A stretch of 64,000 bases of DNA. Origin: Escherichia coli. Its GTDB lineage: Bacteria > Pseudomonadota > Gammaproteobacteria > Enterobacterales > Enterobacteriaceae. How positions within the stretch are numbered: the first letter of the stretch is position 1; every line of letters starts with the position of its first letter. The stretch lies in the NCBI RefSeq assembly GCF_022846255.1, contig NZ_AP025682.1, one strand, 5' to 3'. Under the pieces are notes generated by a model. The model made no database searches and had not been told where the DNA came from. It saw only the letters and a program-made list of their open reading frames with translations. This document shows positions 27,183-27,724 of this stretch, piece after piece. The position numbers were made by a program, and so were the translations under genes.

Positions 27183-27199
27183 ACTCCCATTCTTACTTT

Positions 27200-27240
27200 G
27201 TAACAAGCCGGTGCTTTACCCACTGGCTTGTTACCCTCTT
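27200..27240 (+). terminator. Stem-loop after yddW
   Basis: gtaacaagcc…ggcttgttac inverted repeat; no clear T-tract. Confidence 0.35.
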
Positions 27241-27505
27241 GAACTATCCCACTAGCAATCATGCTTAAATACGTCAAATTAACCACGCAATTAACCACAC
27301 TTAGTTAAACAGCCATAATTCCCCTAATAAAAATGTATAAATATGAAAAAACATACGATATTCGCTGTCACCGAAAAATAATTACGATGAGCTATACTCT
27401 TCTGAAGAACAGTAGCGTAGATTGAAACTGTCCTAAGTCGCTTATTTCTTTTCAGTATATCTTCATATTTCAGGAGAATATGGTGCAGTTAGTCGATCCC
27501 GCACG

Positions 27506-27724
27506 TTGTGTTTGGTTGATTTTGGCCTGCGGTTTAACCATAAAGGTCGACATTATTTTAAAGCCGCAAACGGCGAGGATATTGCCCTCTCACTTTCCAT
27601 CGGTGCCGCCATGTTTAATGGTCATCCTGACTATGAGCGCCTCATTCAAATAGCCGATGAAGCTCTGTATATCGCCAAAAGACGAGGTAGAAACCGTGTT
27701 GAACTCTGTAAAGCCAGTCTTTAG
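27506..27724 (+). pseudogene. dosC: Remnant of diguanylate cyclase dosC: only the GGDEF-domain C-terminal tail
   Basis: 72-codon ORF (…LSLSIGAAMF…ADEALYIAKRRGRNRV…) is the tail that follows the GG[DE]EF motif in GGDEF domains; no GG[DE]EF or sensor-globin sequence in any frame of the 323 bp after yddW; K-12 DosC is ~460 aa. Confidence 0.65.

Follow-up and report, generated by a model that had tools for sequence, protein, structure and literature searches.

The dosC remnant beside dosP in Escherichia coli: very probably a fixed pseudogene scar of a whole lineage

Between digH (yddW) and dosP, the 64,000-nucleotide stretch of E. coli DNA analysed here (the window) contains a shortened remnant of dosC (dgcO, yddV). 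We consider it very probable that this remnant is a pseudogene scar fixed throughout a lineage, in which dosP has been kept and is presumably transcribed from the old promoter. In K-12, dosC encodes a globin-coupled, oxygen-sensing diguanylate cyclase and is the first long gene of the yddY-dosC-dosP unit; DosC and DosP form an antagonistic, co-transcribed pair, which is associated with RNase E and PNPase. We propose that two illegitimate deletions in the ancestor of the ST131, ST95, ST73/CFT073 and strain 536 lineage removed 1217 bp. Lost with them were the 3' end of yddY, the translation start of dosC, the coding sequence for the oxygen-sensing globin and for the middle domain, and the core of the GGDEF domain in which catalysis resides. 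The residue codes for no cyclase and now belongs to the leader, about 319 nt long, that separates the retained yddY/dosC promoter from dosP, the latter presumably being transcribed from the old operon promoter as its first full-length gene. The pair of source and sink formed by DosC and DosP would thereby be reduced to an oxygen-activated phosphodiesterase alone.

K-12 DosC promotes the expression of pgaABCD and of the curli genes and is required for swarming by way of colanic acid. Carriers of the scar would be without these DosC-dependent outputs, namely the activation of PNAG and curli genes, colanic-acid swarming and the degradosome-associated PNPase module. Since roughly one in five complete E. 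coli genomes, the major extraintestinal pathogenic clones among them, appear to have a phosphodiesterase-only DosC/DosP module, the results obtained for DosC in K-12 (PNAG, curli, swarming and colanic acid, degradosome) would not be transferable to them. An effect on c-di-GMP turnover, as proposed by the sequence-only reading of this locus that our analysis follows up, would be in agreement with this. As a discovery the loss carries little weight, because it has been annotated and reported and c1919, its counterpart in CFT073, has already been knocked out; what we add is small and consists of the two-deletion anatomy, the lost internal start site of dosP and the fusion of yddY.

Anatomy of the remnant between digH and dosP

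According to the ORF list, the gene order in this part of the window is gadB-gadC-digH(yddW)-dosP-ddpX-ddpA. The upstream neighbour, digH (25863..27182, plus strand), is intact with 439 residues, and its counterpart in the identical locus of L1PEag1 is named 'digH family 10 glycosylhydrolase' in RefSeq. From the digH stop codon at 27182 to the ATG at 27749, at which RefSeq-style annotation starts dosP, the gap is 566 bp; in K-12 MG1655 it is 1770 bp and includes the 1383-bp dosC gene. The sequence-only reading had noted an interval of about 540 bp where K-12 has a dosC gene of ~1.4 kb. It was right about the short gap and about the K-12 gene, but its 540 bp extend to an upstream ATG at 27725, not to that of dosP. 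The possibility that dosC might be equally short in K-12, which it had also raised, falls away with the full length of the K-12 gene.

Breakpoints were mapped by BLAST against the K-12 locus (L001) and then read base by base. The alignment consists of three collinear pieces, all on the plus strand, and thus reveals two gaps relative to K-12, one deletion of 686 bp and another of 531 bp. The first piece (27102-27513, corresponding to L001 1703-2101) comprises the intergenic region and the leader and ends 46 nt before the dosC ATG. At the junction of deletion 1 (27513..27514), 686 bp are gone (L001 2102-2787); with them went the final 8 nt of yddY, the signals for translation initiation of dosC (ribosome-binding site and start codon) and DosC codons 1-213, that is, the globin sensor and the middle domain. 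The second piece is an island of 47 bp (27514..27560, L001 2788-2834), which encodes DosC residues about 214-230 (DFGLWFNHKGRHYF) in the DosC reading frame and is as in K-12 at 45 of its 47 nucleotides (96%). Deletion 2, with its junction at 27560..27561, is an in-frame loss of 531 bp or 177 codons (L001 2835-3365), by which DosC residues about 230-406 are missing and, with them, the RSSD I-site as well as the GGDEF motif itself (residues 374-378). The third piece (27561..27724, L001 3366 to the dosC stop) is the dosC tail pseudogene, whose 54 codons represent DosC residues 407-460, followed by the stop codon; it carries the substitution W457C and has 99% nucleotide identity to K-12.

No clear microhomology is present at junction 1, and junction 2 has only a 1-nt (A) ambiguity. 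We attribute the deletions to illegitimate recombination, of unspecified type. We count two deletions, though both may have arisen in one complex event. The alignment to K-12 that had been suggested together with the sequence-only reading thus upholds the deletion it described, but not the single deletion it assumed, given the 47-bp island that separates the two.

The digH-yddY intergenic region is 93% identical to K-12, as against 99% for the dosC tail. Around 27277-27298, where a perfect 10-nt direct repeat (AATTAACCAC) occurs with a spacing of 12 nt, the K-12 sequence is shorter by 13 nt.

As to coding content, the tail lies in an ORF of 72 codons (27506..27724, plus strand), which has a TTG start and no Shine-Dalgarno sequence and equals c1919 of CFT073. 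A tblastn search of the 64-kb window with K-12 DosC matched residues 406-460 at 27557-27721, with 96% identity, and residues 209-229 at 27497-27559; a third match near 61 kb, with 38% identity, was an unrelated GGDEF protein. The same search gave nothing for residues 1-208, and thus no sensor globin, in the 64-kb window, and neither a GG[DE]EF nor an [GAS]G[DE]EF motif was found in the six frames of 27183-27748. In comparisons of the 72-aa product with the GGDEF profile (TIGR00254 / Pfam GGDEF), only positions 115-166 of 168 were matched, with a score of 35.5 bits that lies below the cut-off of 37.4, and the product therefore falls short of a full domain, which has about 160-170 residues. The sequence-only reading, which had described a GGDEF tail devoid of its signature motif and of the globin, is borne out on both counts, by the tblastn search for the globin and by the motif and profile searches for the tail.

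The remnant occupies the orthologous position of dosC, being collinear and flanked by digH and dosP. It has in common with K-12 dosC this position, the promoter, the leader to 46 nt before the ATG, and the 47-bp island and 164-bp tail, both in frame; it differs by the 1217 bp that are gone and has no start codon, globin, I-site or GGDEF motif, so that no cyclase would be made. From its collinearity and near-identity to K-12 dosC (96% in the island, 99% in the tail), we conclude that it is a dosC remnant, i.e. a pseudogene, and not a functional member of the family. A 72-aa product without A-site, I-site and metal ligands cannot be a cyclase, considering the architecture of GGDEF domains and the partial profile match, and, as far as can be judged from its sequence, the remnant is probably no longer a gene in the DosC frame.

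Distribution and previous records of the allele

To map the distribution of the allele, we used a query of 141 nt spanning both junctions and a set of 5426 complete E. coli genomes. Both junctions were contiguous in 1049 of these. Scored singly, junction 1 was found in 1050 and junction 2 in 1054 genomes, where the excess for junction 2 includes at least one match joined from two pieces in a dosC-positive genome (H15); an allele with one deletion only was not detected when each junction was queried alone against the 5426 complete genomes. The globin-coding K-12 segment that deletion 1 removes is present in 4353 genomes, and the sum of 1049 and 4353, 5402, compares with about 5403 genomes that had any match. 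As these counts are complementary, the two states appear to partition the species, and carriers of the remnant would have no second dosC. Direct support for this comes from a gene census in which CFT073 is without yddV (Spurbeck et al. 2012, PMC3484386). The sequence-only reading had said that a second, full-length dosC in the same genome would speak against it; the window contains none.

Carriers include O25b:H4-ST131, IHE3034, CFT073, MP1, the avian pathogenic BEN5202, L1PEag1 and RM14723. The named carrier clones (ST131, ST95, ST73/CFT073 and strain 536) belong to phylogroup B2. In an ST38 genome, presumably of phylogroup D, dosC is intact. The allele is therefore a common, fixed lineage marker that is not peculiar to the strain under study. 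Its origin by chance or as an assembly artefact is ruled out by the identical double junction in 1049 complete genomes, and the in-frame dosC fragments, together with the truncated yddY, make it very unlikely that the short form is the ancestral state. Among 12 carrier alleles compared, those of the ST131 type have a further deletion of 1 nt at window position 27675, which destroys the frame of the tail; the window is without it.

The loss of DosC in these lineages is already known, both from RefSeq annotation and from the literature. In every carrier examined, the RefSeq entry for the tail is that of a pseudogene, under the name 'diguanylate cyclase domain-containing protein; incomplete; missing N-terminus', among them L1PEag1, ST131, IHE3034, MP1 and CFT073; in ST131-type genomes it is also labelled 'frameshifted'. 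In public records, the exact 72-aa protein goes by the names 'Putative conserved protein [E. coli CFT073]' and 'diguanylate cyclase [E. coli]', from at least 1000 contigs, and a 70-aa member of its cluster is ECP_1486 of strain 536. CFT073 c1919, ECP_1486 and the pseudogene of ST131 and ST95 thus represent the same allele, the 72-aa product in the window being identical to the CFT073 entry. CFT073 has been described as having c1918 and c1919 in place of K-12 dos and yddV; in that study c1919 was shown without a GGDEF motif, and c1918 and c1919 were both deleted (Spurbeck et al. 2012, PMC3484386). A passage in a further paper calls DosC 'frequently absent' (PMC5635171), and in a preprint the whole of ST131 is said to have 'transformed YddV/DosC into a novel short protein' (10.1101/2022.05.07.487787).

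Degenerate or orphaned genes of c-di-GMP turnover in pathogenic E. coli and Shigella, affected by deletion, stop codon or frameshift, reflect the same kind of event, in which one member of the GGDEF/EAL network is pruned in a particular lineage. What sets the present loss apart is that it struck the upstream member of an antagonistic pair of co-transcribed genes, of which the downstream partner is under selection.

Transcription and retention of dosP, and the fusion of yddY

The promoter of yddY-dosC(-dosP) is retained at 27380..27430 (plus strand), where 50 of 51 nucleotides match the K-12 51-mer, the exception being 27390, where G is replaced by A. The K-12 transcription start site (TSS) corresponds to 27430, with a -10 hexamer TAGATT at 27418-27423 and a sigma-S-like element CTATACT at 27392-27398; in K-12, the dosC/dosP operon promoter is RpoS-dependent. 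The K-12 dosC TSS was mapped 129 nt upstream of the ATG, with 2 reads only (Kim et al. 2012, PMC3415461, supplementary file 2), and nothing on a yddV promoter was found in PMC3141248. A simple sigma-70 promoter scan of 27100-27800 returned 1 weak site, compared to 1.5 expected by chance. On the K-12 TSS mapping, dosP mRNA most likely starts at the old operon promoter and has a leader about 319 nt long, and the Shine-Dalgarno sequence of dosP (GAGG, 27740-27743) is located in the retained dosC-dosP spacer. A second, internal TSS of K-12, with 7 reads, lies 262 nt before dosP (Kim et al. 2012, PMC3415461). It maps to L001 3292, in the GGDEF-coding part of dosC, and was removed by deletion 2, so that dosP expression could fall below the level we assume.

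Transcription arriving from digH is probably of minor importance. A hairpin with 14-nt arms (27200..27234, plus strand), an inverted repeat of 93% complementarity, is located directly 3' of the digH stop codon; it is kept in K-12 and is not followed by a T-run. It probably terminates digH transcription or marks the 3' end of the digH mRNA, and, since it sits after digH, read-through from this gene is unlikely to account for most of the dosP transcription. The predicted fold of the dosP leader is no more stable than that of shuffled sequence (z=0.06) and thus gives no case for a structured regulatory RNA. An Rfam scan of 27000-27900 yielded two matches at chance level (E 0.35-0.45), far under the gathering scores.

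A hairpin with a T-run resembling a terminator (AATGCCGCCGATGGCATT TTTTT) is seen at 27770-27787, 20-40 nt inside the dosP coding sequence, and is present in K-12 too. It is a consensus match only, of a kind that is not found above shuffled expectation.

The sequence-only reading had called dosP intact, and we agree. The gene (pdeO; 27749..30148, plus strand) encodes 799 residues and matches the NCBIfam DosP equivalog NF008467 over positions 1-799 of 800, with 1639 bits (cut-off 857). The translation shows the motifs EAL, DDFGTG and EGVET as well as the heme-pocket sequence 'RPAHPEY...GMSREL'. Judged by profile and motifs, DosP is an oxygen-sensing c-di-GMP phosphodiesterase and a full-length member of its family.

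In carriers, dosP could conceivably be a relic without a role, not yet decayed while the whole dosCP module is being discarded. Such decay is apparent in some sublineages, since dosP has a stop codon in isolate B-11870 and two frameshifts in the CFT073 record (NC_004431.1, L013 6209-8610), where single-base insertions at dosP nt 1312 and 2311 have led RefSeq to call it a pseudogene. The loss of the dosP-proximal internal TSS, the deletion of the adjoining ddpXABCDF operon in typical carriers and the lack of a motility phenotype of a pdeO deletion in K-12, as reported in the literature, would also fit. The CFT073 insertions, however, could be errors of an old assembly as well as real decay, and CFT073 is the single exception among 12 carriers examined; the other 11 have an intact dosP with all catalytic motifs kept. 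The ribosome-binding site and the upstream promoter are also preserved. Most telling is the polymorphism among eight typical carrier alleles, which comprises 20 synonymous and 9 non-synonymous segregating changes in dosP (ω≈0.13; binomial p≈1e-7 against neutrality). This strong synonymous bias shows that purifying selection continued after the loss of dosC, and because of it we give the relic explanation hardly any credence.

The two insertions also account for the treatment of c1918 by Spurbeck et al. as a PAS-containing 'DGC' without EAL. Deletion of c1918 was reported to impair biofilm formation in glycerol medium, and a foreign cyclase did not restore it (PMC3484386), but, since c1918 of CFT073 is a frameshifted dosP, this result says little about an intact dosP.

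Deletion 1 had a further consequence for yddY. In K-12, YddY is a protein of 13 residues encoded between dosC and yddW, whose product has been seen by chromosomal tagging (VanOrsdel et al. 2018, PMC6001520), and low Mg2+ induces the regulatory region of yddY, for which PhoQP is required (PMC11429745). The window retains its Shine-Dalgarno sequence (AGGAG, 27472-27476), the ATG at 27480 and codons 1-11, except for the substitution L7P. Deletion 1 starts in codon 12, and in contrast to K-12 codons 12-13 and the stop are deleted, so that this is no longer the 13-codon YddY. Because the stop codon is missing, the frame extends through out-of-frame dosC DNA to a chimeric ORF of 57 codons (27480..27653, plus strand). 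We found no published description of this fusion, and the exact sequence of its product is absent from a collection of 15 billion proteins, from which we gather that gene callers do not report it.

The remnant might therefore be thought to have become a functional small-protein gene, in which the product or the translation of either the 57-codon YddY fusion or the 72-aa c1919 matters, for instance because the peptide associates with the membrane or because the ORF, lying upstream, controls the expression of dosP. K-12 yddY is, after all, a validated, translated small ORF, its start signals and 11 codons persist in the fusion, all 12 carriers examined keep the 57-codon frame open, the fusion product contains a hydrophobic stretch (Kyte-Doolittle 19-residue mean up to 1.85), and the wording 'novel short protein' of the ST131 preprint would suit such a product. 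Yet the fused part is out-of-frame dosC DNA with no sign of selection, and the carriers are too alike for the open frame to be informative; in ST95 alleles, moreover, the yddY Shine-Dalgarno sequence is weakened from AGGAG to AGGAA. The 72-aa ORF fares no better, with its TTG start, the missing Shine-Dalgarno sequence, the frameshift in ST131-type alleles and the lack of every catalytic element, and the c1919 deletion in CFT073 is not listed among the mutants with motility or biofilm effects (PMC3484386). The ordinary structure of the leader RNA adds nothing in favour of a role for its translation. We consider a functional small-protein gene improbable and continue to regard the remnant as a scar. 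A broader conjecture would have the yddY fusion yield a lineage-specific hydrophobic peptide of 57 residues, whose translation across the leader sets the level of the orphan DosP, as part of a pathoadaptive lowering of oxygen-dependent c-di-GMP signalling in extraintestinal pathogenic E. coli; we mention it as a speculation that is unlikely to hold.

The ddp boundary and an accessory island

Most of the dosC-deletion carriers that we examined lack the whole ddp operon, dosP being followed directly by osmC. Unlike these typical carriers, the window keeps ddpXABCDF (30405-36369). The remnant is contiguous with ddpX and ddpA in three complete genomes among the matches listed, including 2012C-4502, and the full ddpXABCDF operon beside the remnant was confirmed in 2012C-4502 only. 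Internal stop codons were seen in ddpB of 2012C-4502 (L015 17154-18176) and in ddpF of the ST38 genome (L010 2854-3780).

Between about 26700 and 28040, the window does not differ from L1PEag1. Through the 3' half of dosP (28000-30224), mismatches to L1PEag1 then climb, reaching about 6% per 250 bp at the 3' end of the gene, which adjoins the boundary between presence and absence of ddp; on either side, at 23-28 kb and 36-41 kb, the similarity to typical carriers is about 98.5-100%. By this pattern of similarity, the 3' half of dosP looks like a recombination mosaic.

At 58442-62187, the window contains an accessory island that is absent from K-12 and occurs in 438-528 of the 5426 genomes, including ST38 and L1PEag1. 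It comprises an alkyl/aryl-sulfatase (58442-60418), a membrane-type GGDEF protein of 365 residues with an intact GGEEF motif (60465-61562) and, on the minus strand, a fragment of an ISAs1 transposase (61636-62187). The extra cyclase gene that the sequence-only reading had placed at 60465 is accordingly real, in that motif and profile searches both identify a GGEEF-bearing protein. We considered whether this gene is DgcX and rejected the assignment, because DgcX sits at attB beside a lambdoid prophage.
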